A stretch of 34,032 nucleotides of DNA from a virus. The first letter of the stretch is position 1; every line of letters starts with the position of its first letter. A program made the translations under genes and the position numbers. Under the pieces are notes generated by a model that did no database searches, had not been told where the DNA came from, and worked only from the letters and a program-made list of their open reading frames with translations. Below, one piece after another: positions 100 through 33,103 of the stretch. The stretch lies in the IMG/VR virus record IMGVR_UViG_3300027742_000026; one strand, given 5' to 3'.

Positions 100-209
100 A
101 ATTGATTGAGTTTATCAAATGGGTGTATGAGTTGGATGATGAGGAGATATGTTCTGATGGTTGGAAATCCAAAATAATCACAAAGGTACAATCACTGTTC
201 ACAAAATAA
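3..209 (+). CDS. Hypothetical protein, C-terminal part of the junction-spanning gene that starts at 33638
   Basis: The frame is open from the window start to TAA at 207-209. It continues the ORF running off the 3' end once the 99-bp overlap is collapsed (about 168 aa in total). It contains a basic KKRKPRKVTRKRKR stretch. Confidence 0.6.
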   Translation, partial: HPNIKPEPKKRKPRKVTRKRKRVSQKKMDNKDQLIEFIKWVYELDDEEICSDGWKSKIITKVQSLFTK

Positions 210-216
210 CAATCGT

Positions 217-846
217 ATGATAGATTGTAATGTGGCAGGAATAGAAATAACAAAAAAAATGAGTGTGAAAGCAAAAGAGTGGACAGACATCAAAGCACCC
301 AGAATCACACAGCATTTTACTCAGAAAAGAATCAGCAAGAAAGAAAGTATTTTCATGGCATCACTAGGGGAGATTGCATTTTGTGAGATGATGGATATTG
401 ATTGGGAGAGCAGAAAGATAGAGAACAAACCAGACATTGATGCAATCACCAACAAAGGAAAGATAATGGAAATCAAAACATATTCAGTCCCCAGTCCCTA
501 TTTTGAGAAACTGATTAGGAATGAATTGGATAATGATGACCTATATGGCAGATGTTTGTTTTTAGAGAAACAGGCACATGAGTTGGGAATATGTGACTAT
601 GTATTTTGGGGAGTGTTTCAAGACCATGAGTATAATGTTTGGTATCCAATAGGATACATGTCATCTCATGATATATTGGAAAGATATACAGCCCAGACAC
701 ATGTTTGTGATGGGAGAGTAAAACTCCCACAGATTGCATTTACAGTGGGAAATCAAGATGTTAGGAAACTCAGAAAATGGTACAATATAGCAGATGAGGA
801 TATCAACATACAGCAAGGGCAAAGCATGGAAAAGGGGCAAGTGTGA
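217..846 (+). CDS. Putative PD-(D/E)xK-fold nuclease
   Basis: 209-aa ORF. Motif order GEIAF ... PDIDAI ... MEIKT fits the E / D / ExK arrangement of restriction-endonuclease-like nucleases. An alternative ATG at 259 has an A-rich leader. Confidence 0.45.
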   Translation: MIDCNVAGIEITKKMSVKAKEWTDIKAPRITQHFTQKRISKKESIFMASLGEIAFCEMMDIDWESRKIENKPDIDAITNKGKIMEIKTYSVPSPYFEKLIRNELDNDDLYGRCLFLEKQAHELGICDYVFWGVFQDHEYNVWYPIGYMSSHDILERYTAQTHVCDGRVKLPQIAFTVGNQDVRKLRKWYNIADEDINIQQGQSMEKGQV

Positions 847-1099: not shown

Positions 1100-2040
1100 A
1101 AACATTTGGGATATATCATGAGTGGATACCAAGAGTTGGGGGCATTGAATCAGCAGTGTTTAATTTGGGCAAAGCAATGGACAAGGTAGGATACAAAGTC
1201 ACAGTGTATTTTGCAGGTTGTGAGAGTTGGGAAAGTTTATTCAAGTATGCACAGATTGGTGATGTGGTGAAATTACTCCCAGACCATAAAGAGGGTCAAT
1301 TCAAAGAGGATGTCCTATTGATAGCATCCAATCATTATATGCCCAAGACTATCAAGGCAGGCAGATATTTGCAGTGGGTTCATAGTGACTATGACAAATA
1401 CAAGTTAGATTTGAGAAACAAGGGTCAGGTTGAGTACATAGCAGTGAGCAAACATGCAAAAAAGGTTATTGAGAGGAGAGAGAAAATCAAGGCAAAGGTG
1501 ATATACAATTTGATTGATGATGATTTTGGTACAGATGACAGAGAGGTTTTGAGATTTGTGACAAACAGTAGAGTCAGCCCAGAAAAGGGATTTGACAGGA
1601 TGATATTATTTGCAGAGGCACTCAATGATGCAAATGTGAGATATGTTTGGACAGTGTATGGGGACAACAGTGTTTCTCCCAAGTATTTTGAGGATTGGCA
1701 GAGAAAGTTCAGACATCTCCCACAGGTTCATTTTGTAGGATACAAACCAGACATCACAGTGGGATTGGAGAATGCCACATACAGTTGTCTATTTTCAAAC
1801 TTTGAGGGTTGTCCATATTCTGTATTGGAGTCACTCAAATTAGGAGTACCCTGTTTGGTGACAGATTGGTTGGGTGTGGATGAGTTGATTGATAATGGGG
1901 TCAATGGGTATATATTGCCAATGGACATGAAATTGTCCAAGTACAAAATCAAAAAGATACTCAAAGAGATACCAAAGTTTGAATACAAACCATTGTCCAC
2001 AGTGAAAGATTGGGTTAAAATTATTGAAAAAAAGAAATGA
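1081..2040 (+). CDS. Glycosyltransferase, GT-B fold family 1 (GT4-like)
   Basis: 319 aa. The C-terminal signature is SPEKGFDRMI...FSNFEGCPYSVLESLKLGVPCLVTD...LIDNGVNGYILP (E-x7-E motif). The stop overlaps the next start (ATGA). Confidence 0.85.
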   Translation: MANQKVKTFGIYHEWIPRVGGIESAVFNLGKAMDKVGYKVTVYFAGCESWESLFKYAQIGDVVKLLPDHKEGQFKEDVLLIASNHYMPKTIKAGRYLQWVHSDYDKYKLDLRNKGQVEYIAVSKHAKKVIERREKIKAKVIYNLIDDDFGTDDREVLRFVTNSRVSPEKGFDRMILFAEALNDANVRYVWTVYGDNSVSPKYFEDWQRKFRHLPQVHFVGYKPDITVGLENATYSCLFSNFEGCPYSVLESLKLGVPCLVTDWLGVDELIDNGVNGYILPMDMKLSKYKIKKILKEIPKFEYKPLSTVKDWVKIIEKKK

Positions 2041-2987: not shown

Positions 2988-2988
2988 A

Positions 2989-3141
2989 ATGGTGACACTC
3001 AGGGTTAGAAAAAAATACAATGATTTGGAAAGAAATCAATTGATGACAATTGGAATGGACTTTGAGGTGACAGTAGAAAGAGCCAGACTTTTAATGGAAA
3101 AGGGGTTTGTTGATATAATCAAAATTGAAAAAGTTGTATAA
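2989..3141 (+). CDS. Small hypothetical protein (50 aa)
   Basis: Hand-translated ATG..TAA ORF: MVTLRVRKKYNDLERNQLMTIGMDFEVTVERARLLMEKGFVDIIKIEKVV. It is below the track's size cut-off. Codon style matches the genome and it is tightly packed after the upstream stop. Confidence 0.4.
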   Translation: MVTLRVRKKYNDLERNQLMTIGMDFEVTVERARLLMEKGFVDIIKIEKVV

Positions 3142-3299
3142 TGAAAACAGGGAAAATCATACCATACAAGATTGATGGAAAATATTACATTATGATGTTT
3201 GGCAGAGAGTACGAGTTAATTTTAGGAAAGGCAACAGATGGGAAAGTCCAAAAAGAAAGTAGCCAAAAAGCCACAAGGGAAAAAATCCCTATGGCATAA
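3141..3299 (+). CDS. Small hypothetical protein (52 aa)
   Basis: Hand-translated ORF MKTGKIIPYKIDGKYYIMMFGREYELILGKATDGKVQKESSQKATREKIPMA. Its start overlaps the previous stop (TAATG). Confidence 0.35.
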   Translation: MKTGKIIPYKIDGKYYIMMFGREYELILGKATDGKVQKESSQKATREKIPMA

Positions 3300-3549
3300 A
3301 GTGGTTGGGTGGTTTAGAAAATAGTTTGTTAATATATAGGAAATGATAAAGTATCAAGCACATAGAGAGAAAATTGCTAAAGAAAGAAAAGAATCAAGAA
3401 AAATAGCACATTGTGGGTGGGTACATTAGGCGAGAAATCAGGGTACTGTTATCACAACGGAAACAGTAGGTGTTCATTTACCTCACAAGCCCACAAAGGT
3501 TTCTGATGGTGCAAGTCCATCCCCATCCAAATCAGTTTGATACCATTTG

Positions 3550-3558
3550 TGATATAAT
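3550..3558 (+). promoter_or_regulatory. Possible extended -10 promoter (TGATATAAT) ahead of the packaging genes
   Basis: TGnTATAAT matches at 3550-3558, with no good -35 hexamer at 17-nt spacing. Confidence 0.3.
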
Positions 3559-3717
3559 TACATAACTGTATACAAAACTACAACAGGGGATAGAGTAGAG
3601 TAGGGGAGGGGAGTTTGTATTGAAAACACAATGTTTTTGGTCAAATATCCCAAAATATGGTATATACAATTGAGAGTAGGGGATATTGATATATTTAACC
3701 TATAAACAGCAATTATT

Positions 3718-4032: not shown

Positions 4033-5230
4033 AGTCACAGGAGTTTATGAAAAGACAGTTGAGGCATCCAAGAAATACAAGATAATATTGCATGAGGGTG
4101 GGTCAAGGTCATCCAAGACATGGAGTATATTTCAGTTTTTTTTAGGAAAGGCAATTGCAGGAGAGTGTATCACTGTCACTATTGTGAGAGATAAACTCAC
4201 ATGGATTAAAAGTACCCTACTCAAAGATTTTCAGGAAATTGTCAAACTGATGGAGTTGGATGTATTGCCAGATGTCAACATCAACAGACCAGAACAGACC
4301 TATTACATCAATGGGAGTGAGTTTGCATTCTATGGATTAGACTATGCAGAGAAATTACATGGGAGGACACAAGATTGGTTTTGGGGCAACGAGGCAATGG
4401 AGATTGCAAAGAAACATTTTGACCAGTTGGAAATGAGAACAAAGATTGGAGGGATATTGGACTACAATCCATATGATGATATGCATTGGGTGTTTGATTT
4501 ACAGAAAAGACCAGATGTGACAACTATCAAGTCAACCATGTTGGACAATCCATTTTTACCAGAGAGCATCAGGACAAAAATCAAATCCTATGAGCCAACA
4601 GAGAACAATATTGCACAGGGTACAGCAGATGAGTTTATGTGGCAGGTGTATGGACTAGGAAACAAGGCAAGATTACAGGGGACTATATTTAACAGTTGGG
4701 ATATTGTGGAGACCATACCAGAGGATGCCAAATTGCTTGGAATGGGATTGGACTTTGGATATACCAATGACCCAACAGCATTGGTTGAATTATACAAATA
4801 CAACAATGAGATATATTTCAATGAGTTGATATATGAAACAGGAATGTTAAACAGTGACATTGCCCAGAGAATGAAAGACTTGGATGTGAATGGATACACA
4901 GATATTTATGCAGACAGTAGTGAGCCAAAGAGTATTGAGGAGATTAGGAGACATGGTTTCAATATCAGGGGTGTGGACAAGGGTTCAGATTCAATCAACT
5001 ATGGAATTGATATAATGAAATCATACAAGATGCATATCACAAGAAAGAGTGATAATATGGAAATGGAGTTGAGGAGATACAAATGGGCAGAGGACAGGGT
5101 TGGAAAGATACTCAACAAGCCAGTGGATGCATTCAATCACTGTATTGATGCAGGGAGATATAGTGTGATGATGTTATTAGGAAAGCAACCAGAGATTCAG
5201 ATATTCAACAAAGAAAGATTTGGTTTGTAG
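4016..5230 (+). CDS. terL: Large terminase subunit (PBSX / Terminase_3-like)
   Basis: Walker A-like GGSRSSKT. Nuclease-domain motifs MGLDFGYTNDPTALVE, IYADSSEP and HCIDAGRY are in the order typical of this family. Confidence 0.92.
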   Translation: MIKTVKVTGVYEKTVEASKKYKIILHEGGSRSSKTWSIFQFFLGKAIAGECITVTIVRDKLTWIKSTLLKDFQEIVKLMELDVLPDVNINRPEQTYYINGSEFAFYGLDYAEKLHGRTQDWFWGNEAMEIAKKHFDQLEMRTKIGGILDYNPYDDMHWVFDLQKRPDVTTIKSTMLDNPFLPESIRTKIKSYEPTENNIAQGTADEFMWQVYGLGNKARLQGTIFNSWDIVETIPEDAKLLGMGLDFGYTNDPTALVELYKYNNEIYFNELIYETGMLNSDIAQRMKDLDVNGYTDIYADSSEPKSIEEIRRHGFNIRGVDKGSDSINYGIDIMKSYKMHITRKSDNMEMELRRYKWAEDRVGKILNKPVDAFNHCIDAGRYSVMMLLGKQPEIQIFNKERFGL

Positions 5231-5274: not shown

Positions 5275-6591
5275 ATGTTTACAGTACCAGAGGAAAAGTC
5301 ACTGTCAGTTGAATTGATTGAGGATGCCATCAAGTATAATGAAAAGGACAGGAGCAGGTTTGATACATTAGAAAACTATTACAGAGGAGAGCATCCAATA
5401 CTCAAAAGAAAGAAACCCCCAACAGCCAAGAACAGCAGGATTGTGGTTAATCATGCCAAGTTCATTACAGACACCAATGTGGGGTATTTGCTAGGGTCAA
5501 CACCATCATACACAGTTGCAGATGAGAAATATGACATTGCCCCAATCATGGATGAGTACAAAAGGCAGACTATATCAGACACAGACCATGAGATTGCCAA
5601 AGATGTATCCATATTTGGGAAACAGTATGAATTGATTTACAACATAGAGAATGAGGTCAAGTCAAAGGACATAGATGTCAGGAATTGTATTTGTGTATAT
5701 GATGACACAGTAGAACACAAAAAAATGTTTGGAATCATTTACAAACTAGGGAAACAAAAAGATGAGTTTGAGAACATTATTGTATATGATAATGAGTCCA
5801 AGTATGAGTGTGCAGTGGACAAAAAGATTGTGATTGATTCAGAGCCAGAAAAACATTTGTTTGAGAAAGTCCCTATCATTGAATATAGAAACAACAGTGA
5901 GATACAGGGTGATTTTGAACAGGTGGTATCTCTCATTGATGCATACAATCTGTTGCAATCAGACAGAATCAATGACAAAGAGCAGTTGGTTGAGGCAATT
6001 TTGGTTGGGTATGGGGTCAAGTTAGAGAAACCTCAAATGTCAGAATTACTCACAGACAGGACATTGTTTGGATTACCAATCAACTCAAAAGTTGACTATC
6101 TCATAAAGCAAATGGATGAGGGTCAGGTTGATATATTGAGAAAGACTTTGGAGAATGATATCCACAAGATATCCATGACACCAAACATGAGTGATGAGCA
6201 GTTTATTGGCAATGCCAGTGGGGTTGCTATCAAGTACAAATTGCTATTGTTTGAACAGAATGTGACCAACAAAGAGAGGTATTTTGAAAAGGGTTTGTTG
6301 GAGAGGTTTGAGTTATATAACAACTATTTGATAAACATCAAAAAGAGTGTTGAAATCCCATTGTATGAGGTGGATGTGGTGTTCAAGAGAAATCTGCCAC
6401 AAAATGATTTGGAGATATCCCAGATGATTTCAAATCTGTCACCATACATTGATGATGAGACATTGGTTGAGAGACTATCATTTATTGGGAATCCATCAGA
6501 GGTGGTGGAGAAAAACAAGGCAGAGGACAGAGAAAAACAAAAGTTTGTTGCCAGACAGTTTGGTGAGGCACAAATTAGTGAGACATTGTAA
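5275..6591 (+). CDS. Portal protein (SPP1 gp6-like)
   Basis: 438 aa, immediately after terL. The N-terminal YYRGEHPILKR motif, the size and the position before a MuF-type gene are all typical. Confidence 0.85.
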   Translation: MFTVPEEKSLSVELIEDAIKYNEKDRSRFDTLENYYRGEHPILKRKKPPTAKNSRIVVNHAKFITDTNVGYLLGSTPSYTVADEKYDIAPIMDEYKRQTISDTDHEIAKDVSIFGKQYELIYNIENEVKSKDIDVRNCICVYDDTVEHKKMFGIIYKLGKQKDEFENIIVYDNESKYECAVDKKIVIDSEPEKHLFEKVPIIEYRNNSEIQGDFEQVVSLIDAYNLLQSDRINDKEQLVEAILVGYGVKLEKPQMSELLTDRTLFGLPINSKVDYLIKQMDEGQVDILRKTLENDIHKISMTPNMSDEQFIGNASGVAIKYKLLLFEQNVTNKERYFEKGLLERFELYNNYLINIKKSVEIPLYEVDVVFKRNLPQNDLEISQMISNLSPYIDDETLVERLSFIGNPSEVVEKNKAEDREKQKFVARQFGEAQISETL

Positions 6592-6607
6592 TTTGACAAC
6601 ATAGAAC

Positions 6608-9600
6608 ATGGACATCCAACAGAAAGCCAGATGGGTGGCAGGGTTGAGGGTGATGTCAAACTATTGGAGAGGGAGGAGTGTCAACAGGTTGACTGAGAAT
6701 GAGGCAATAGGGCAAGAGGCAATTGAGAGAACATTGCCCATATTCAAAAAGGCACTCAAAGACCTCAACACACAAATCAATGAGTTATATGTACAATATT
6801 CAAATGAGGTAGGTTTGGATGTATTGGAATTGACCAGAGTATTATCAGGGGTTGATAGGAACAAGTTTATCAGTCACATGCACAGTGTCCTCAAAGAGGT
6901 TGGATTGGATGTTGGGGATATATACAACAGGGAGTTTTTGGAGAAACTCACAAGGTTGGAGGCATTCAAACAACAGGTGTATTGGGAGGTTGAGAAATTG
7001 GCAAAGGAACAAGAGGAGATACAGACAGAGGCATACAAGGAAATGGTCAAAAGGAGTTATGAGGAGACAGGCAATGACATCAGGAGGTTGGCAGGAGATA
7101 CAACATCCCCATTTCAAACAATTACCACACAGACCCTCACAGAGTTGTTGAAAGAGAGATGGGCAGGGGGCAATTACTCACACAGGATATGGGGCAACAC
7201 ATCAAGGTTGGGAAAAAAACTCATGGATACATTGGGGACAGGGTTGTTGATAGGATACTCCCAACAGAGGATGGCAAATGAGGTTAGTGAAAGGTTTGAT
7301 GTGACAGAGTATGAAATGATGAGGTTAATCAGGACAGAGGCAAATTATTTCAACAATCAGGCAGAGTTGCAATCATACAAGGATGAGAACATCCCATATT
7401 ACAGGTTTGATGCAATTTTAGATGGGAGGACATCCCATTGGTGTGACCCAAGTCAGGGGGGGTTGGGGGGCATGATATTTGCAGTTGAGGATGCCATTGT
7501 TGGTGTCAATTACCCTCCATTGCATCCACATTGCAGGTCAACCACATACCCTATGTATAAAGATGAGATTGGCAGTGAAAAGATATGGAAATCAAATGAT
7601 GTATTGGCAGGGAATCATATTTTGGTGACAGCATCCCCTCCTCCAAAGCCAAGACCCACAAAGCCAAAGCCAAAGCCAATAGTCACAGATGGTATGGAAT
7701 CAATCACAGATTACAAATCATTCAAGGAATATTTTGCTAGTATCAACCCAAAGTTCAAACCAGTTAGAAAGAGGATTGAAATATACAAGAAAAATATTTT
7801 GAATGCAAAATCTCCCAAAAATGCATATAGCATTATATTAGACAGAGACCATATCACAAGTGTGTATGACAATGAAACAGCCCAGATGGTGTATGCATTT
7901 CAGGAATTGAAACTACTCCCACAGGTGTATGCAGTTAATAAAGAGCAGTTTGAGTTTTTGGAAAAGAACACCAAATCAGCACTATCAATCAGAGAGATAA
8001 TGAGGAAACTGTTGGCACAAAACAATGCAGTGGATATGAGAACAATGTGGGCAGACCAAACCTATTTGGGAGGCAAACAGCCATTACTCAAAGTCATCAA
8101 TTATGCAGAGTTATCCAAAAGCATTGCAAAAGACATTCTCACAGAGAAAGATTGGGGTCTGTTGGTCAGAACAACAGGAAAAGAAAAATGGGGAAATGAT
8201 ACATATTTGAGTATGCAATTCAATCCTGTCAAAATAGAAATAGAGAAATACAAGAAAGAGGGAAAAGGGAGTGAATATATATCCATGATGGCAGAGACAT
8301 ACACATATCTCAGTAGGATTTACAGGGGAAAGAGTGAAAAGAGAGTGGAGGCAGGATGGGAGGAGAGACTTGGTGTGGACTTTTTGACTCAACTGATGCA
8401 ATTCAAAGGGGCAAGAGAGAGATTATTCTTTGGAGAGGGTTTGCCAAAAGAATGGTGGCACTTTGGAAACAAAGTTGATGTGAATAACATCAATAGGATA
8501 CTCAGGAGTGGATTCAAAAAAGCACATAGTGATATGTACAATGAACAAAAGTTCAATGAGATAGTTGCAAGGTATGATAAAGCATTTGACCAAAGCAAGA
8601 CACAGGAAAACATGAAACTGTACAGAGGGGTTTCTTTCAACGAGAATTACACGATTGACAATTTCAAGGTTGGGAGTGTTCAGTCAACCACAGACTATTG
8701 GTTCACAACAGAAAGAGAATCATTAGCAAAGGGATACACAAGTAGTGAGGGTGATGTTGCTATGTTGGAAATATATTTACCAAAGGGTTCAAAAGCACTC
8801 ACAGTGGGACAATTCTATTATGAAAATGACCAAGTGCTATTGGCAAGAAATACCCAGTATGAGGTCAAAAGAATATACATGAGCAAAGAGGGATACCCAG
8901 TCATTCAGTTGCAGTTTCTATTGCCAGAACAGGAGAAATTGGAACAAAGATACTATGACATGTACAGGTTTGATTCAAAAAAGATTCAACCAGTAGAAAC
9001 CAAGACATGGGAGGAGTTGATGGGGGATATGACAAGGTCAATGTTGACTAAAGAGGAGATTGATTTAGTAGAAAGCACATACCAAGATTTTCACATCAAG
9101 AGGGATTTTGATGAGAAACCACATGCCATACATGACTATGTAATGAACAGTGACAAGATAGAAAGGTATCCACATGGAGAGATAATGATGACATATGCAA
9201 AGATTCTCAATAACAAAATGAGGTTTGAGAATGATGATTTGACAGAGAATGCATATCAAGAGAACATTGACAATATACTTGGGGAAATGTTTGGAATAGC
9301 AGAACCCAGAAATCAACTGTTTACAGAAACCCAAGTCCCAGAGAGGTGGTGGCATTTTGGACAAGACAGGGCAACCATCAACGAGGCAAATGCATATATC
9401 ATGGGTGGGTATGATGCAGTCAAAAGAAAGGCAAAAGAATATTGGTCAAGGGCAGACCCAATGCCAGAGAAAGATATCAAAAAAATGATAGAGGAGTATG
9501 ACAGGGCATTTGAGAAAGCACAGAACAAAGAGGATATGACATTTTTCAGAGGGGTTTCATTCAGTCACAATTTCAATATAGATAATTTCAAGGTGGGAGG

Positions 9601-23968: not shown

Positions 23969-24196
23969 ATGGACATAGAAACAGCAAAACAGATTACCAA
24001 AGATATAACAGAATGCAAAATGATGTTGACAAACTCTATCAAGGACATTGCAAAATTAGAGCAGGGGAAATGTTCAAAAGAAAATGTTTGTCACTTGGCA
24101 GAGAGGATTTCAAAAGTGGAGGGGAATCTGTCAAAAATTGTTTGGATAGTTTTGAGTGCAGTTATTGGTGCAATTTTGATGTTGGTTTTGAAATAA
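23969..24196 (+). CDS. XhlA-like lysis-associated membrane protein
   Basis: 75 aa. A coiled N-terminal part is followed by one C-terminal transmembrane helix (IVWIVLSAVIGAILMLVLK), as in PBSX XhlA. It was chosen over the overlapping alternative-frame ORF 23959-24201. Confidence 0.5.
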   Translation: MDIETAKQITKDITECKMMLTNSIKDIAKLEQGKCSKENVCHLAERISKVEGNLSKIVWIVLSAVIGAILMLVLK

Positions 24197-27462: not shown

Positions 27463-27613
27463 TGACTTGGAATAACATCACCAGATACGATTAGTAGGGT
27501 GTTGAAATGAAAAAAATTACAGAAATACCAAAGAAAATATTTTCAATCAGAGTGGGGAAATATAGGTTGGTATTGTATAAACAAATTGAGAAAATTATCA
27601 ATGATTTGAGTGC

Positions 27614-27642
27614 TTGACATCCCAAATATCAGAGGGTATATT
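27614..27642 (+). promoter_or_regulatory. Sigma70-type promoter P1 (TTGACA-17-TATATT)
   Basis: The hexamers lie at 27614-27619 and 27637-27642 with exactly 17-nt spacing, at the start of the early region. Confidence 0.6.
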
Positions 27643-27648
27643 TTAATG

Positions 27649-27760
27649 GGGAGAGGGGAAACAGGCAAGGATTAGATGACAGGATGGGATGGATACTCTC
27701 AACACTCCTCCAAAGGTATGTTTTTCATATCACAGGAGATGTCCATCCTATTTTGTTATT
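27649..27760 (+). ncRNA. Candidate structured leader or short RNA between P1 and the initiator gene
   Basis: There is no ORF. GGATGGATA(C)TCTC (27687-27700) pairs with GAGATGTCCATCC (27736-27748), and TATTTTGTTATTT follows. Confidence 0.35.
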
Positions 27761-27782
27761 TAATTTGTGAATCCCCAAATAT

Positions 27783-28574
27783 ATGTCAGAGTCAGAGAGT
27801 TTTTGGGTGGTGATACCACATTATGTGTTGTCAGACCCACACATCACAGCAGGAGACAAAATCCTGTATGGTGAATTATCATCCCTCACCAGAAAGGATG
27901 GCAGGTGTTATGCAACCAACAGTCATTTCATTGAGGTGTTGGCAATGTCAGAGAGGTCAGTGAGAAATGGTTTGAATAGATTACAAGATGCAGGATACAT
28001 TCAAGTTGAAACAAAACACAGCAAGAATGGAAAGAAAGGCACATGGAGAACAATTAGGTTGGGAAATATTGATATCAACAAGGGGGATGGTCACATTGGA
28101 GAGGGGGGGGAGGCAAAAAAGGGGAGGGGGGGGAGGCAAAAATTACCTCCCAAAAGAGAGATACACAAGAGAGATACACAAACTGTATATAAATATACAG
28201 GGGACAAGTCCCAAAAGTCAGAGATTTCTCATAAAGAGAAAGACAAGGGGAGTACAGGAGAATATGGAAACCCAGATGTCAACAGATTTATCAAGGGAAT
28301 GAACAAGTATTTGGTTGTTAAACTCCCAGAGGATGGGAAAGCAAGAAAGGTGGCAAACAATAGTTTGAATATATTTACAAAGAGAAACAGTAAAGGGGAT
28401 GTAAAGAATGGCAGGGAGTTCATGGATGATAATACATGGACAAATATCAAAATGTTTTTGGCAGAGTACCATGACAAGAAAATATCAAAAGGATATTCAC
28501 CACAATCATGGGGGACTTTGTATCAGAATATCAAATTGTGGGTGGCAAATGAGGGGAAATTGCCAAGTAAATAA
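27783..28574 (+). CDS. Replication initiator / replisome-organizer-like protein with N-terminal winged-helix domain
   Basis: The N-terminus FWVVIPHYVLSDPHITAGDKILYGELSSLTRKDGRCYATNSHFIEVLAMSERSVRNGLNRLQDAGYIQVE resembles the HTH of plasmid and phage Rep proteins. Origin-like repeats lie inside the gene. Confidence 0.7.
   Translation: MSESESFWVVIPHYVLSDPHITAGDKILYGELSSLTRKDGRCYATNSHFIEVLAMSERSVRNGLNRLQDAGYIQVETKHSKNGKKGTWRTIRLGNIDINKGDGHIGEGGEAKKGRGGRQKLPPKREIHKRDTQTVYKYTGDKSQKSEISHKEKDKGSTGEYGNPDVNRFIKGMNKYLVVKLPEDGKARKVANNSLNIFTKRNSKGDVKNGREFMDDNTWTNIKMFLAEYHDKKISKGYSPQSWGTLYQNIKLWVANEGKLPSK
28103..28142. repeat. Two perfect 17-nt direct repeats GGGGGGGGAGGCAAAAA (iteron-like), 23-nt period
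   Basis: Copies lie at 28103-28119 and 28126-28142. Each starts with a G8 run. Confidence 0.85.
28156..28181. repeat. Perfect 13-nt tandem duplication GAGAGATACACAA x2
   Basis: Copies lie at 28156-28168 and 28169-28181. Confidence 0.9.
28183..28200. repeat. AT-rich perfect palindrome CTGTATAT-AA-ATATACAG
   Basis: The 8-nt arms lie at 28183-28190 and 28193-28200. Confidence 0.9.
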
Positions 28575-29349: not shown

Positions 29350-29589
29350 ATGGGATATGCAATGTCAGATGCAGAATTAGTCAGGATTGTAATGGCAATC
29401 AAGGGATTCACAAAACAGGAGATGATGGAGTTCATGGGAGTCAGCAGACAGACCATTTATGCATGGTTGAACAACAAGCAAAATATTGCCCAGTTCAGGA
29501 AACCAAAAATGGAAAGAGTCGTATTTGAGTTCATAGAGGATTTCAAAGGTGTCAAACCTATAACAGGAGAGACAGTTGACACAGTGTAA
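29350..29589 (+). CDS. Small helix-turn-helix DNA-binding protein
   Basis: 79 aa. FTKQEMMEFMGVSRQTIYAWLNNK is a typical HTH segment. The last codons (TVDTV*) contain the -35 of promoter P3. Confidence 0.6.
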   Translation: MGYAMSDAELVRIVMAIKGFTKQEMMEFMGVSRQTIYAWLNNKQNIAQFRKPKMERVVFEFIEDFKGVKPITGETVDTV

Positions 29590-29604
29590 TGCATGGTGTA
29601 TAAT
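29576..29604 (+). promoter_or_regulatory. Sigma70-type promoter P3 (TTGACA-17-TATAAT)
   Basis: The hexamers lie at 29576-29581 and 29599-29604. About 45 nt are near-identical to P5. Confidence 0.7.
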
Positions 29605-29610
29605 GTAGTT

Positions 29611-29937
29611 AGTTAATTGATAGCACATGAACAATAGAAAAAGTATGGATTGGTGGCAGAAAATATTGCACATCAGCAGAGTTGATATCACTATATGGGA
29701 ATATATATGGATTTGTTGATGGTTGATTAGTTGAATACTTTGGTGAGTGAAATCACAGGAGTATATCTTGGATGTGTGTGACTTGCATTATCATACATCC
29801 TATTTGGACAACAGGTGATGGAGATGCGATTACTAACCTGTAAAACTCAATTGGTCTTGTTGGTGAGAGCCCAACCCAATCCTTTTCAAAGATAGATGGA
29901 TGGTTGATTCAAACAGAACATCATCCATGTGTTTTTG
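29611..29937 (+). ncRNA. Candidate structured RNA of about 325 nt (promoter-to-terminator unit with only a 30-codon ORF)
   Basis: Five stems were found by eye. They are 29743-29756, 29770-29800 (9 bp), 29811-29841, 29850-29880 (two-tier 5+5 bp) and the terminator stem 29896-29928. Confidence 0.45.
29896..29937 (+). terminator. Intrinsic terminator
   Basis: ATGGATG (29896-29902) pairs with CATCCAT (29922-29928), followed by GTGTTTTTG. Confidence 0.6.
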
Positions 29938-29962
29938 ATTTAATTTTTTAATTTGTGAAAGA

Positions 29963-30190
29963 ATGAGAAACAAAGAGAAAAAGAATCATGCAGACAAAAT
30001 GATTCATGGGTTGGTGTATGACCACACAAAAAATCTGATGTTTGATTTGTGTGATGAGTATGGAGTTGATATTTCTGATTTAGGATTTGCCCAAATTGAG
30101 AGATTGAATGACAGGATTGGAAAGGCAGTTAAACAAATAATGGTTGATGCCATTATAAACAGCCCTCAATCATGTGTAGAGGAGGTCTAA
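29963..30190 (+). CDS. Hypothetical early cassette protein
   Basis: 75-aa ORF preceded by TTTAATTTGTGAAAGAATG and followed by the hairpin at 30196-30214. Confidence 0.5.
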   Translation: MRNKEKKNHADKMIHGLVYDHTKNLMFDLCDEYGVDISDLGFAQIERLNDRIGKAVKQIMVDAIINSPQSCVEEV

Positions 30191-30195
30191 CAGCA

Positions 30196-30214
30196 GGGAG
30201 GTGAAAGTCCTCCC
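30196..30214 (+). repeat. Intergenic hairpin GGGAGG-TGAAAGT-CCTCCC (member of a hairpin family)
   Basis: Perfect 6-bp stem with a TGAAAGT loop. It is followed by AATATTTTACTTTTAATTGTGAGAAAAATG. Confidence 0.8.
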
Positions 30215-30241
30215 AATATTTTACTTTTAATTGTGAGAAAA

Positions 30242-30538
30242 ATGAAAGAGTTATCAAACAAAAATGCCTGTGGAAAACAAAGAGATGTGGAGAATCCATA
30301 TCATATATACAGGGCATTGTATTTGCCAAATTGGGAGTGGAGGGTACTCAAAAAGTACCAGTCACCAAAAGGTGAGGCAACCAACTCATATGCAAGATGG
30401 TTTTGTGCAGTCAAGAGTCCATGTACATATGGAGATTGGGAATATGGAGATACATATATTTCAGACATTAAAGAGGCAGGTGGTTTTGAAATATCATTGG
30501 CAGAGGCAAAGGGATTGGAAAAAGAGGATAATGAGTAA
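30242..30538 (+). CDS. Hypothetical early cassette protein
   Basis: The track start at 30233 is GTG and the first ATG is at 30242, after AATTGTGAGAAAA. The product is 98 aa. Confidence 0.5.
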   Translation: MKELSNKNACGKQRDVENPYHIYRALYLPNWEWRVLKKYQSPKGEATNSYARWFCAVKSPCTYGDWEYGDTYISDIKEAGGFEISLAEAKGLEKEDNE

Positions 30539-30543
30539 AATCA

Positions 30544-30565
30544 GGGGGGGTGAAAATCCCTCCCC
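30544..30565 (+). repeat. Intergenic hairpin GGGGGGG-TGAAAAT-CCCTCCC(C) (hairpin family)
   Basis: 7-bp stem with one G-U pair and a TGAAAAT loop. It is followed by AATATTTAATTTTTTAATTGTGAGAAAAATG. Confidence 0.8.
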
Positions 30566-30593
30566 AATATTTAATTTTTTAATTGTGAGAAAA

Positions 30594-30884
30594 ATGAGAA
30601 ACTATGGAAAGATGCCATTGATATCCCCAAAGGATACATTGACATATGAGGATTTGATGCATGTCAGGACTGTTGATATATCAGATTATACAAAGGAGAA
30701 TCCATTTTATTACACAGACAAGACATTCTCAAAGTGGTTTGACCCAAAGAATGCAAAAGTTGGTAGCAGATTTGTGGATGCAAACAATGGAGATAATTGG
30801 AGAGTGATATCTGTCAACAATGGTATGTGCAGAATGGTTGTACAGAATATGTCACAACAGTTTATAGACATAATGCATTGGTAG
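30594..30884 (+). CDS. Hypothetical early cassette protein
   Basis: The track ORF 30264-30884 extends upstream through the previous gene and the hairpin. The ATG at 30594, after AATTGTGAGAAAA, is the sensible start and gives 96 aa. Confidence 0.5.
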   Translation: MRNYGKMPLISPKDTLTYEDLMHVRTVDISDYTKENPFYYTDKTFSKWFDPKNAKVGSRFVDANNGDNWRVISVNNGMCRMVVQNMSQQFIDIMHW

Positions 30885-30891
30885 TGAAAAC

Positions 30892-30919
30892 AGAGAGGGT
30901 GAAATATCCCTCTCTTTTT
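30892..30919 (+). terminator. Intrinsic terminator (hairpin family member with a T-run)
   Basis: AGAGAGGG (30892-30899) pairs with CCCTCTCT (30908-30915) around a TGAAATAT loop, followed by TTTTG. Confidence 0.7.
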
Positions 30920-30923
30920 GTTA

Positions 30924-30952
30924 TTGCAATATATTAGTTGACATAGTATAAT
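30924..30952 (+). promoter_or_regulatory. Sigma70-type promoter P4 (TTGCAA-17-TATAAT)
   Basis: The hexamers lie at 30924-30929 and 30947-30952. An extra TTGACA lies 3 nt upstream of the -10, as in P2. Confidence 0.65.
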
Positions 30953-30982: not shown

Positions 30983-31477
30983 ATGATAAACAGAGACAGA
31001 ATCAGTTTTAGAGTAGGAGGTTCAGGTGTGACAAGTAAAGGTGCATGGGCAATGGCATTGGTGTATATAGATGCCAGAACATGCCAAGAGGAGTTGGATA
31101 CAAAGTTTGGAGTGGATGGATGGCAGTTCACATGGAGTGAGGTTTGTGGTCATGAGTTTGCAGTGCATGGAGAATTGCAATGCAAGATGGATGATAAATG
31201 GGTCACTAGAGAGGATGTAGGGTATCCACAAGAGTTGAAAATGTCCAAAGGGGTCAATGATAGTGAGGTTCTCAAAGATGCAGTGTCAGATGCCCTCAAA
31301 AGATGTGCAGTTCAGTTTGGTATTGGCAGATTTTTGTATGATGCCCCAAAACTATTTTCATTCAATGTCAAAACAGGTAGGAATGGAAAGGTCAAAGGAT
31401 TTGCAGTTGAGGGTGAGCAGGAAATATCAGACAAAATTGATACATGGTACAAATCAATTAGTAGGGAGGCAAAATAA
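30983..31477 (+). CDS. Rad52/Sak-type single-strand annealing protein
   Basis: ALVYIDARTCQEELDTKFGVDGWQFTW and KDAVSDALKRCAVQFGIGRFLY match the conserved Rad52_Rad22 core motifs. Confidence 0.85.
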   Translation: MINRDRISFRVGGSGVTSKGAWAMALVYIDARTCQEELDTKFGVDGWQFTWSEVCGHEFAVHGELQCKMDDKWVTREDVGYPQELKMSKGVNDSEVLKDAVSDALKRCAVQFGIGRFLYDAPKLFSFNVKTGRNGKVKGFAVEGEQEISDKIDTWYKSISREAK

Positions 31478-32693: not shown

Positions 32694-33103
32694 AAACTAT
32701 TCAAACAGAAATGAAAAACTACAACAGGAGAGCAGACAACAGTGTCAGTTTCAGATTGGACTCCCTGTTGGAATTATCAAGCAAAGAGATTGGAGAGATT
32801 GATGCATACAGAGGATGTGTTGCCATTATTGTTTTGACAGACAGTATTGTTGGAAATGTTGTGGATTTTGATATGAACACAATCCTCAAAAACCTCCCAG
32901 AGAATGATGCCATCTCAAATTACAAATCACCCTCCAAAAGGTTCAGAGATGTATTGTACAGACTATGTGAGCAGGAGTTGAAAAGACCTCCATCCAAAGA
33001 GGAGTTTGTTGATTACTATCAGAAAGAGTACACTAAAATCACAGAGCACTACAAATCAAAGTTTGAGGATGATATTGGAGAGGGTATAGTTGACACAATG
33101 TAA
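32690..33103 (+). CDS. Hypothetical early protein
   Basis: The track start at 32675 is TTG. The first ATG, at 32690, overlaps the upstream stop (ATGA). The last codons (IVDTM*) carry the -35 of P5. Confidence 0.5.
   Translation: MKTIQTEMKNYNRRADNSVSFRLDSLLELSSKEIGEIDAYRGCVAIIVLTDSIVGNVVDFDMNTILKNLPENDAISNYKSPSKRFRDVLYRLCEQELKRPPSKEEFVDYYQKEYTKITEHYKSKFEDDIGEGIVDTM

Follow-up and report, generated by a model that had tools for sequence, protein, structure and literature searches.

A probable structured RNA gene with a possibly cloverleaf-like core among the early genes of a phage

The locus and its transcription signals

The subject of this analysis is an intergenic gap in IMG/VR virus record IMGVR_UViG_3300027742_000026, a stretch of 34,032 nucleotides referred to here, at its full length, as the window. 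The gap (29590-29962, 373 nt without a called gene) is very probably the gene for a conserved structured RNA. The 34-kb window resembles a complete phage genome with every gene on the plus strand, ordered from the terminase, an SPP1-type portal and the tail genes through an M23 peptidase to an early region that begins at ~27.2 kb; the nearest relatives of its terminase belong to phages of Bacteroides and Parabacteroides, at ~36% identity. The gap follows a gene for a helix-turn-helix (HTH) protein, which two small genes separate from a replication-initiator gene, and precedes three small genes and then a gene for a Rad52/Erf-type annealing protein (hereafter Rad52). The structured locus lies ~1 kb downstream of the initiator gene and ~1 kb upstream of Rad52 (Table 1).

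Much of the evidence comes from L012, a 34,115-bp Logan contig that is syntenic with the window and was reached through its Rad52 (77% identity). In L012 the HTH gene (47% protein identity to its window counterpart) is followed by a promoter, a 488-nt gap free of open reading frames (ORFs) and a small protein beginning MRNK (29% identity). Relatives were reached solely via Rad52, whose relatives are graded in identity. Searches with the flanking proteins in a word-indexed database of 5.8 billion proteins returned only self-matches, although the same search also missed the 47%-identical L012 protein, and comparison of these proteins with IMG/VR and GTDB, singly or as an alignment, gave nothing.

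An earlier note, made from the letters of the window, had described at this site a perfect TTGACA-17-TATAAT promoter and, downstream of it, a single ORF of 30 codons. Both observations hold: the promoter matches the sigma-70-type consensus at every position and is conserved in L012, and the ORF is the sole plus-strand ORF of at least 30 codons in the gap. The promoter overlaps the final codons of the HTH gene and carries between its hexamers a TGTAATG (29585-29591) that is conserved in the syntenic L012 promoter (4708-4737; 12/12 match with an 18-nt spacer; CAGTTGACA...TGTAATG...GGTATAATGTAG). Sigma-70-like sites with at most one mismatch number three in the window against 0.69 expected, all on the plus strand between 27.6 and 29.6 kb, and the promoter at 29576 is regarded as more than a chance match because both its position and its sequence are conserved in L012. 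Paralogues of it occur at 33090 in the window and at 8641 in L012. Altogether, five sigma-70-like promoters are found only in the early region (27614, 28920, 29576, 30924, and 33090), four of which (27614, 28920, 29576, and 33090) have counterparts in L012 (2733, 4052, 4708, and 8641, respectively). The promoter is a predicted one, and the main sigma factor of Bacteroides and Parabacteroides hosts uses a consensus other than TTGACA/TATAAT.

Several features of gene control in the early region were observed alongside. The early promoters fall into two subtypes with a common 16-nt box (TTGACAYAGTRTAATG), which lies over the -35 hexamer in one subtype and over the -10 hexamer in the other; the protein encoded by the adjacent HTH gene may use it as an operator. 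An ORF-free leader (27463-27782) lies between promoter 27614 and the initiator gene, and its L012 counterpart (2737-2883, 147 nt) folds with z = -4.5; this leader could form an origin-related or regulatory structure. Almost all start codons in the window are preceded, 10-20 nt upstream, by the motif (A)TAATTT(G/T), and Shine-Dalgarno sequences are not visible. Examples lie at 24193, 24659, 26044, 27169, 28572, 29950, 30226, and 30967, with late genes carrying mostly ATAATTTTAG and early genes TAATTTGTGA or TTAATTGTGAGAAAAATG. This motif is reminiscent of a phage late-promoter box or of TAnnTTTG, the -7 promoter element of Bacteroidota.

The possibility that the gap holds a small protein gene or its decayed remnant, with only incidental structure, is so slight as to be nearly negligible. 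The 30-codon ORF, which has no Shine-Dalgarno sequence, does begin 22 nt downstream of the -10 hexamer, and the letters before its ATG (TTAATTG-ATAGCAC-ATGA) loosely resemble the usual gene-start motif TTAATTGTGAGAAAAATGA. However, the 12-mer GCACAUGAACAA in the predicted leader is the same in L012 save that the ATG reads ATT, and no equivalent ORF occurs in the L012 gap, from which we conclude that the ORF is not a gene; moreover, the compensatory substitutions in helices described below imply selection on RNA pairing. The outcome in L012 is therefore the reverse of the one that the earlier note had named as fatal to its proposal, namely an ORF extending into a real gene with an unconserved downstream part: here it is the downstream part that is conserved. 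The tryptophan richness of the ORF product reflects a G+T-rich strand, on which TGG occurs 863 times in all frames. Its frame contains four TGA codons before the TAA, and stop-codon recoding was considered and rejected, because TGA serves as a genuine stop in 7 of 40 genes, ATGA overlaps included, and is the commonest stop triplet in any frame of the window genome, out-of-frame positions included.

Fold and conservation of the RNA

In the window, the predicted RNA is organized around a long-range helix (P1) that closes the whole domain, with its 5' strand pairing to 29876-29887, and that encloses a short hairpin (P2), a long irregular hairpin (P3), a multi-hairpin domain (P4), and a second short hairpin (P6); P1 and the P4 domain appear in both the minimum-free-energy and the centroid folds. 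The 335-nt unit folds better than shuffled sequence (z = -3.4; 0 of 100 shuffles as good), as does the 226-nt stretch 29720-29945 (z = -3.2; 0 of 200), and the folding window 29771-30030 ranks second of 260 genome-wide. By itself, this moderate advantage of the window locus over shuffled sequence is no more than suggestive.

The L012 gap gives a stronger signal, folding at -147.2 kcal/mol against -100.0 in shuffles (z = -9.3), compared with z values of +0.3 to -3.3 for five L012 coding stretches of the same length and -4.0 for the reverse strand of the gap. No similarity between the two gaps beyond the promoter was detected by blastn, and yet the two folds agree element by element despite their diverged sequence (Table 1), down to the spacer between P6 and the 3' strand of P1, which is 0 nt in both. 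When the strands are read against each other, three inner P1 pairs, one outer P1 pair (A-U to C-G), and one P6 pair are compensated, and no pair of either helix is changed without compensation.

Table 1. Features of the RNA locus in the window, their counterparts in L012, and the elements found in other contigs (numbered within those contigs)
Feature	Position	Strand	Description	Counterpart in L012
Replication-initiator gene	27783-28574	+	phrog_270 and HTH_36	
79-amino-acid HTH protein gene	29350-29589	+	directly upstream of the RNA locus; ends at TAA within the promoter	
Sigma-70-type promoter (predicted)	29576-29604	+	-35 TTGACA 29576-29581, 17-nt spacer, -10 TATAAT 29599-29604; 12/12 match	
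Predicted 5' leader	29611-29636	+	start at ~29611 inferred from the -10 position; contains GCACAUGAACAA at 29623-29634	
30-codon ORF	29627-29719	+	judged non-coding; overlaps helices P1 to P3	
P1, 5' strand	29637-29653	+	outer GAAAA 29637-29641, bulge AGUAU, inner GGAUUGG 29647-29653	18 continuous bp, GAACAUUGAGUGGAGAGA with UCUCUCCAUUCAGUGUUC, spanning 334 nt
Junction and P2	29654-29669	+	2-nt junction UG, then hairpin GCAG-AAAAUA-UUGC in conserved box (GGCAGAAAAUAUUGCACA); tRNA D-arm-like; stem paired in all six members	2-nt junction; GGCAGGAAAACCUGCACA
P3	29671-29721	+	long irregular hairpin, 51 nt, predicted fold	51 nt, same position, unrelated sequence
P4 domain	29725-29856	+	closing helix GAUUAGUUGA/UCAAUUGGUC around hairpins 29735-29764, 29770-29800, and 29811-29841	4874-4960, helix closing three hairpins
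P5			extra domain, absent	present
P6	29859-29875	+	GUUGG-UGAGAGC-CCAAC; 5-bp stem, 7-nt loop with base 1 = U and base 5 = A; T-arm-like; abuts P1 3' strand	UUUGG-UGAAAAC-CCAAA; 5-bp stem, 7-nt loop
P1, 3' strand	29876-29887	+	CCAAUCC plus UUUUC	
Terminal hairpin	29896-29936	+	AUGGAUG...CAUCCAU hairpin 29896-29928, GUG, UUUUU 29932-29936; predicted by folding	5134-5155, GAAA loop, same location
Rad52/Erf-type annealing protein gene	30983-31477	+	downstream of three small genes	
L004 element	6326-6608		IMG/VR contig; within a 600-nt ORF-free gap downstream of Rad52	
L017 element	116-288		Logan contig	
L147 element	1201-1360	-	IMG/VR box scan	
L148 element	5652-5818		IMG/VR box scan; has a 3' extension	

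The proposal made in the earlier note, a dedicated and strongly promoted structured non-coding RNA, is supported by the conservation of promoter and fold in L012, by the unconserved start of the ORF, and by the compensatory changes, which extend to P1 and P6 across six members and thereby supply the covariation that the note had recommended looking for, just as the folding energies proved better than the shuffled controls that it had suggested. Three of the hairpins it had drawn by eye (29743-29756, 29770-29800, and 29811-29841) occur in both the minimum-free-energy and the centroid folds. In its fourth, two-tier hairpin the inner part, GUUGG-UGAGAGC-CCAAC, is real and conserved as P6, whereas the partner of the outer CCAAU(CC) is a distant GGAUUGG (29647-29653) and not the local AUUGG. 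Its list of hairpins was therefore not the whole fold, since the long-range closing helix P1, which defines the fold, had been missed, and the structure is not confined to the part after the ORF, as had been supposed, given that the structured domain begins at ~29637, within the small ORF. The terminator that it had placed at the end of the unit is recovered by folding, as hairpin 29896-29928 followed by UUUUU. A noted enrichment in C is present but only marginal (15.9% vs 14.1%).

Base composition in this genome is unusual in other respects. A strong strand skew is evident (G 24% vs C 14%), and CpG is extremely scarce: the 34 kb of the window contain 46 sites, an observed/expected ratio of 0.04, and the ratio for L012 is 0.01. 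CpA stands at 1.95 and TpG at 1.35-1.45, and CpT (0.44-0.52) is depleted on the coding strand only. L017 and L004, two further carriers of the RNA, show ordinary CpG runs as judged by eye. Elsewhere in the window, a protein of 1836 amino acids (6608-12118) has both a Mu F-like head domain and, at residues 624-758, an ADP-ribosyltransferase exoenzyme domain, and may be a virion-borne enzyme that is injected and modifies host proteins.

The terminal hairpin and U-run form a probable intrinsic terminator, predicted by folding and not listed by a consensus scan because its loop exceeds 8 nt. The terminal hairpin of L012 lacks a U-run, so that termination may be partial or specific to the window phage, and the L012 RNA is probably co-transcribed with the downstream genes. 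The main rival explanation treats the element as a cis-acting 5' leader, in which promoter 29576 drives genes 29963-30884 and the fold together with hairpin 29896-29936 constitutes a regulated attenuator, whether riboswitch-like, protein-dependent, or an antitermination element that sets read-through. We regard this as unlikely, even if it deserves more weight than the other alternatives. The stretch from 29604 to 30924 of the window holds no further sigma-70-like promoter, nor does that from 4737 to 8641 of L012, and the downstream genes may for that reason depend on promoter 29576; the other four early promoters, with the exception of 27614, lie 25-30 nt from their genes; the terminal hairpin starts just 8 nt past P1; and read-through would be expected in L012, which has no U-run. 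On the other hand, the fold has no conserved alternative pairing with the terminal hairpin, P1 closing the whole domain, and peripheral domains of ~100 to ~250 nt would be unusual for an aptamer, while the downstream gene has the same TAATTTG start motif as nearly all genes. As regards riboswitch or T-box leaders, the window has a terminator-like hairpin, its L012 counterpart has no U-run, no conserved alternative pairing was seen, and in other members unrelated genes lie downstream.

A related precedent is the lambda PR'-tR' 6S RNA, a short constitutive transcript upstream of antitermination-controlled genes. The two share a strong promoter, a short ORF-free transcript, an intrinsic terminator (a probable one in the window), and same-strand genes immediately beyond. 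In contrast to 6S, however, the phage RNA is a large, conserved, covarying fold that occurs in other gene contexts in relatives; its neighbors are early replication and recombination genes rather than late genes, and no Q-like protein is evident, the upstream gene encoding the 79-amino-acid HTH protein.

A scan of the collected loci for the P2 box with an adjacent long-range helix yielded two further elements, in L004 and L017. The box of these two (GGCAGAGUUAUUGCAC) gave nine matches in an IMG/VR scan, three of them real members, of which one was L004's own contig (L146) and two, L147 and L148, were new, so that the family comprises six members: the window, L012, L004, L017, L147, and L148. 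P2 is the most conserved sequence of the family, with its box GGCAG-N6-7-UGCAC present and its stem paired in 6/6 members. L004 is intermediate, sharing its P1 sequence with L012 and its box, UAAUCGC motif, and P6 with L147. P6 keeps its position and loop pattern in L012, L004, L147, and L148, and to a weaker degree in L017.

In a six-member alignment of the core, assembled by hand around the proposed structure with the P1 3' strand placed by complementarity, all seven inner P1 pairs are changed on both sides while remaining 100% paired, and three P6 pairs likewise differ in both partners. Of all cells, 94% are paired, compared with 72% in shuffles (0 of 500 as high) and 36-51% with a slid partner. 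An alignment of L017, L147, and L148 fitted by a covariance model has 98.9% of cells paired, with five pairs changed on both sides and slid controls at 35-49%; among these three members the P3-equivalent stem is compensated (CCGC/GCGG to CAGC/GCUG). RNAalifold independently recovers P1, P2, and P3; its alternative pairing of UAAUC with GGUUA was set aside in favor of P6, because neither the window nor L012 preserves that pairing, whereas P6 shows covariation. A MAFFT alignment of four members was out of structural register and was not used. The covariance model, built from L017 and L147, retrieves L148 (E = 3e-16) and L004 (E = 0.007). Across 0.82 Mb of unrelated viral contigs, among them most of those selected for a P2-like box, no hit falls below E = 0.4, and more distant phages with a Rad52 yield none. 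A sequence-free descriptor (7-bp P1, 2 nt, 4-bp hairpin, later a T-loop hairpin and then the P1 3' strand) matches the window, L012, and L004, together with ~13 other hits in 2.6 Mb. Other searches were unproductive: a scan with the P6 16-mer pattern returned chance matches only; the window-type P2 box gave more than 119 chance matches, none with the remaining architecture; the leader-plus-box pattern found nothing in GTDB genomes; and blastn of the window, L147, and L148 sequences against a cultured-phage collection produced no match.

The gene contexts of the element differ in L004, L017, L147, and L148, where it lies after Rad52 and small genes or after an NrdD-like mini-ORF, and a repeated intergenic motif flanks it on both sides in these four contigs. 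Such differing contexts and bracketing fit a self-contained unit and speak against a cis-acting leader. Direct repeats around the element in L147 and L017 were considered as a target-site duplication and rejected, as they represent the recurrent intergenic motif GTTCTTnnAAA, which also bounds structured units in L017, L147, and L014. The mini-ORF (41-53 amino acids; KRQKCEIYSRVVGYLRPIKQWNPGKIREFKDRKVF) stands directly before the RNA in L147 (1416-1577, minus strand) and L148 (5436-5594) and before a related structured gap in L014 (3588-3713). It resembles the C-terminal glycyl-radical segment of the anaerobic ribonucleotide reductase NrdD, the L014 product having PF13597, which suggests that the stand-alone mini-ORF may encode a 'spare part' protein. 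Further structure was observed in these contigs: positions 1-946 of L017 fold with z = -5.6 and include an ORF-free structured stretch (301-946) and a domain of 495 nt with a 12-bp closing helix; an ORF-free region of L020 (4092-4682) folds with z = -5.1; and L014 (3703-3890) has a ~24-bp helix closing ~190 nt, with a 5' flank as in L017 and L147 and no P2 box.

It is very improbable that the locus is replication-related, whether as an origin-proximal transcript, as a primer, or as single-stranded DNA that is structured at an origin. Its distance of 1 kb from both the initiator gene and Rad52 and its strong promoter would suit such a role. Against this, the region has no iterons or repeats, the placement relative to initiator and Rad52 differs among members, the transcribed strand folds markedly better than the reverse one and makes use of G-U pairs, and conservation resides in hairpins rather than in an AT-rich unwinding element. 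Within 29590-29962 there are no tandem or direct repeats, and only the promoter and gene-start motifs are common to other intergenic regions; the tandem direct repeats of type III toxin-antitoxin RNAs and CRISPR-like decoys are thus not found.

Likeness to transfer RNA and to known structured RNAs

In keeping with the earlier note, which matched the RNA to no family, Rfam 15 gives no match anywhere in the window at the gathering threshold, and permissive searches return nothing relevant in the locus or L012 (E up to 10) or in L017, L147, L148, L004, and L014 (E up to 5). Two weak, sub-threshold matches fall outside the locus, at 30132-30237. One is to rli48 of Listeria (minus strand, E = 0.004), whose gathering score of 100 far exceeds the 29 bits obtained; the other, on the plus strand, is to the Pistol ribozyme (E = 0.09). 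Both are centered on the hairpin after gene 29963-30190 and are probably due to chance. A group I intron is contradicted by the gene boundaries, the upstream gene ending at its own TAA and the downstream gene having its own start, and by the lack of any Rfam group I family at E up to 10. By every library searched, this is a structured phage RNA family not previously catalogued.

The core of the RNA nevertheless resembles a transfer RNA (tRNA). The cloverleaf junction geometry, in which 7 P1-proximal bp are followed by UG or GG and a 4-bp P2, and P6 is followed after 0 nt by the 3' strand of P1, is found in the window, L012, L004, L017, and L147, although P1 is longer than 7 bp. Standard tRNA numbering and the canonical T-loop UUCRAAU served as the yardstick for P2 and P6. 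On this scale P2 and its flanks present U8, G9, G10, C11, A14, R15, U16, U17, A21, G24, C25, and A26, and P6 presents the G53-C61 pair, U54, R57, and A58. The third position of P1 is A-U or G-C. Under default settings ARAGORN reports no tRNA gene in the window or in any of the six members, with introns allowed or not. With introns allowed and a 90% threshold it calls L004 with the exact P1 boundaries, shuffled copies being called in 4 of 600 cases (0.7%); the window is called, at 29647-29883, at the 80% threshold only, at which 26% of shuffled copies of the six RNAs are also called. The tmRNA mode finds nothing by default and makes permuted-tmRNA calls in two of the six members at the 80% threshold. 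From these features we infer that the core is cloverleaf-like with a closed acceptor-like end, a reading that is weak by formal tests.

Two other tRNA-like signals were noted in these genomes. The second large gap of the window (2988-3717, 730 nt) holds two plausible small genes that overlap at an ATGA (2989-3141 and 3141-3299) and, at 3414-3530, an ARAGORN 'tRNA-Asn with a 26-nt intron' at the 95% threshold, with a T-loop-like hairpin GAUGG-UGCAAGU-CCAUC from 3505. A second copy of the RNA at 3306/3414-3530, flagged by both the descriptor and ARAGORN, was rejected, as its folding is no better than that of shuffles (z = -0.7 and -1.9) and plausible small genes are present. The 3' extension of L148 (5868-5946) is called at the 90% threshold as a 79-nt tRNA-Ala(GGC)-like gene without an intron and has a second T-loop-like hairpin, GGG-UUGAAAG-UCCC.

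Among known systems, the tRNA-like Y RNAs of bacteria and phages (YrlA), which are bound by Ro60/Rsr and are thought to present a tRNA shape to proteins (PMC4201824), offer, together with tmRNA, the closest parallel. Both RNAs carry D- and T-arm-like hairpins on an acceptor-like stem that cannot be aminoacylated, and in both the ends form a long helix. Their topology is reversed, however: YrlA has its ends on the anticodon side and a capped acceptor-like stem (PMC4201824), whereas in the phage RNA the ends themselves form the acceptor-like stem. YrlA also retains the canonical D- and T-loop nucleotides, which are modified by DusA and TruB, whereas the phage RNA departs from them at positions 18, 19, and 56. 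In addition, YrlA genes adjoin rsr, whereas no TROVE/Ro60 protein appears in precomputed Pfam lists within 3-6 kb of the phage RNA (window contig and L012), the large window proteins that were scanned also being negative; and the phage RNA is 2 to 3 times larger and matches no Y RNA or other tRNA-like Rfam model at permissive E-values.

Transfer-messenger RNA (tmRNA) is similar in size (~250-400 nt) and in having ends that pair as an acceptor stem, a T-arm just before the 3' strand, a reduced D-region, and a large structured interior. Unlike tmRNA, the phage RNA has no CCA end, no G3-U70 pair, and no tag reading frame, its P1 extends beyond 7 bp, and the ARAGORN and Rfam tmRNA models find nothing at normal thresholds. 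Phage tRNA genes, including intron-containing ones, share with it the 2-nt and 0-nt junctions, many D- and T-arm consensus nucleotides, and same-strand gene surroundings, but the RNA lacks a standard anticodon arm and the elbow contacts of G18, G19, U55, or C56, and its 'inserts' are structured domains without recognizable group I features or an Rfam group I match. GOLLD, ROOL, and similar RNAs are likewise phage-borne, multi-domain structured RNAs whose biochemical function is unknown and which were found through ORF-free gaps, conservation, and covariation; at 500-800 nt they are much longer than the phage RNA (160-340 nt), which matches none of their Rfam models and does not lie beside tRNA genes.

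A tRNA-like fold inside an early polycistronic transcript could also be a processing or punctuation signal at which RNase P, RNase Z, or RNase E would cleave, the flanking mRNAs thereby being separated or stabilized, with no further role for the RNA. Consistent with this are the tRNA-like core, the probable co-transcription in L012, the invariable position of the element between same-strand genes, and the precedent of a tRNA-like Y RNA that has a 7-bp acceptor stem and undergoes cleavage by RNase P (PMC4201824). We nevertheless hold it to be improbable, since a multi-domain RNA of 160-340 nt with a nearly invariant box of 16 nt far exceeds what such a signal needs, P1 is in most members a continuous helix of 15-18 bp and hence a poor RNase P substrate by the same precedent (PMC4201824), and the window element has its own perfect promoter and a probable terminator.

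A possible tRNA-shaped ligand

According to the interpretation that we favor, host RNA polymerase would transcribe the unit early in infection from ~29611, a timing suggested by its neighbors, which are replication and recombination genes, and by its membership of a cluster of five sigma-70-like promoters. Most transcripts of the window phage would end at the hairpin and U-run near 29936, giving a ~330-nt RNA with a 251-nt folded core (29637-29887). In this RNA, P1 would form an extended, closed acceptor-like stem without an available CCA end, P2 the D-arm, P3 a lengthened anticodon arm, P4 a variable arm that is very large and differs in size among members, and P6 the T-arm. As its acceptor end is sealed, such an RNA could not be charged. 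Rather than taking part in decoding, it would act in trans as a tRNA-shaped ligand that binds or titrates a protein recognizing the shape of tRNA, candidate partners being a host tRNA-directed defense nuclease or a tRNA-processing or -modifying enzyme. Action in trans is favored because the acceptor is sealed, because the D-arm-like box is nearly invariant while the periphery varies, and because the element occurs cassette-like in different neighborhoods; a tRNA-shaped decoy or scaffold is preferred to an antisense small RNA or a type III antitoxin because repeats are lacking. Whereas the existence of a structured RNA gene seems to us very probable, the full statement that includes trans action as a tRNA-shaped ligand is one toward which we lean only somewhat. 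More tentative still, and in our estimate rather doubtful, is the view that the family is a new RNA class derived from, or converged on, the tRNA cloverleaf and made early as a decoy or scaffold that captures a host tRNA-recognizing protein; equally conjectural is the corresponding history, in which the D- and T-arm-like hairpins were kept, the acceptor was sealed, and the anticodon and variable arms grew into domains of 100-250 nt.

Several observations weigh against the favored interpretation. Canonical G18, G19, and C56 are absent: the D-loops read AGUUA, AAAAUA, or AAAA, with no GG, and the T-loops UUGAAAU, UUAAAAC, UGAAAAC, or UGAGAGC, with no C56. This joint absence is at least coherent, as these bases pair together in tRNA. 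P1 measures 12-18 bp in five of the six members and 8 bp in L004, and a helix beyond 7 bp leaves no free acceptor end; the 3' strand is paired past position 72, and a free NCCA end is absent. The ARAGORN calls are unspecific, amounting to 25 'tRNAs' at the 90% threshold and 147 at the 80% threshold in 108 kb of phage sequence, with very few of these calls falling within the RNA elements. The next two window genes, too, are followed by hairpins with UGARANN loops (30197 and 30546), and P6 may belong to a phage-wide class of hairpins instead of mimicking a T-arm. With regard to the RNA itself, the folding of the 266-nt core is a modest signal (z = -2.4; 2 of 200 shuffles as good), compared with z = -1.5 (14 of 200) on the reverse strand, and both transcript ends are predictions. 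In L012, which has no U-run, the next sigma-70-like promoter is only at 8641. The members number only six, some of them closely related, and the shuffle statistics of their alignment overstate independence, because it was built on the structure and its P1 3' strand was found by complementarity. Finally, the L017/L147 covariance model misses the window and L012 even with filters off, so that their link to the other four members rests on the P2 box, the architecture, and the intermediate L004.

The hairpins just mentioned are an observation in their own right. G-rich hairpins with UGAAAnn heptaloops stand right after three consecutive downstream genes (30196-30214, 30544-30565, and 30892-30915), the first two without a U-run, and UGARAnn loops on 5-bp stems number three on the plus strand against 0.19 expected and none on the minus strand.

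New families of structured RNA exceeding 200 nt are rare, and several of the known ones are phage-associated and of unknown function. The anatomy of this one is clear, comprising a dedicated promoter (early by inference), a conserved box of 16-18 nt, and covarying helices, and its tRNA-like core points to concrete candidate partners. The six members, the P2 box, and the descriptor provide a starting point for a covariance-model survey. Should the element prove to be a cis-acting leader instead, it would be a regulatory fold of a new kind in early phage transcription, and an unusually large one. If the RNA does mimic tRNA, it would join the few non-coding RNAs with a tRNA-like form, such as tmRNA and YrlA, and would add an RNA-based strategy to the contest between phages and their hosts over systems that attack or sense tRNA.

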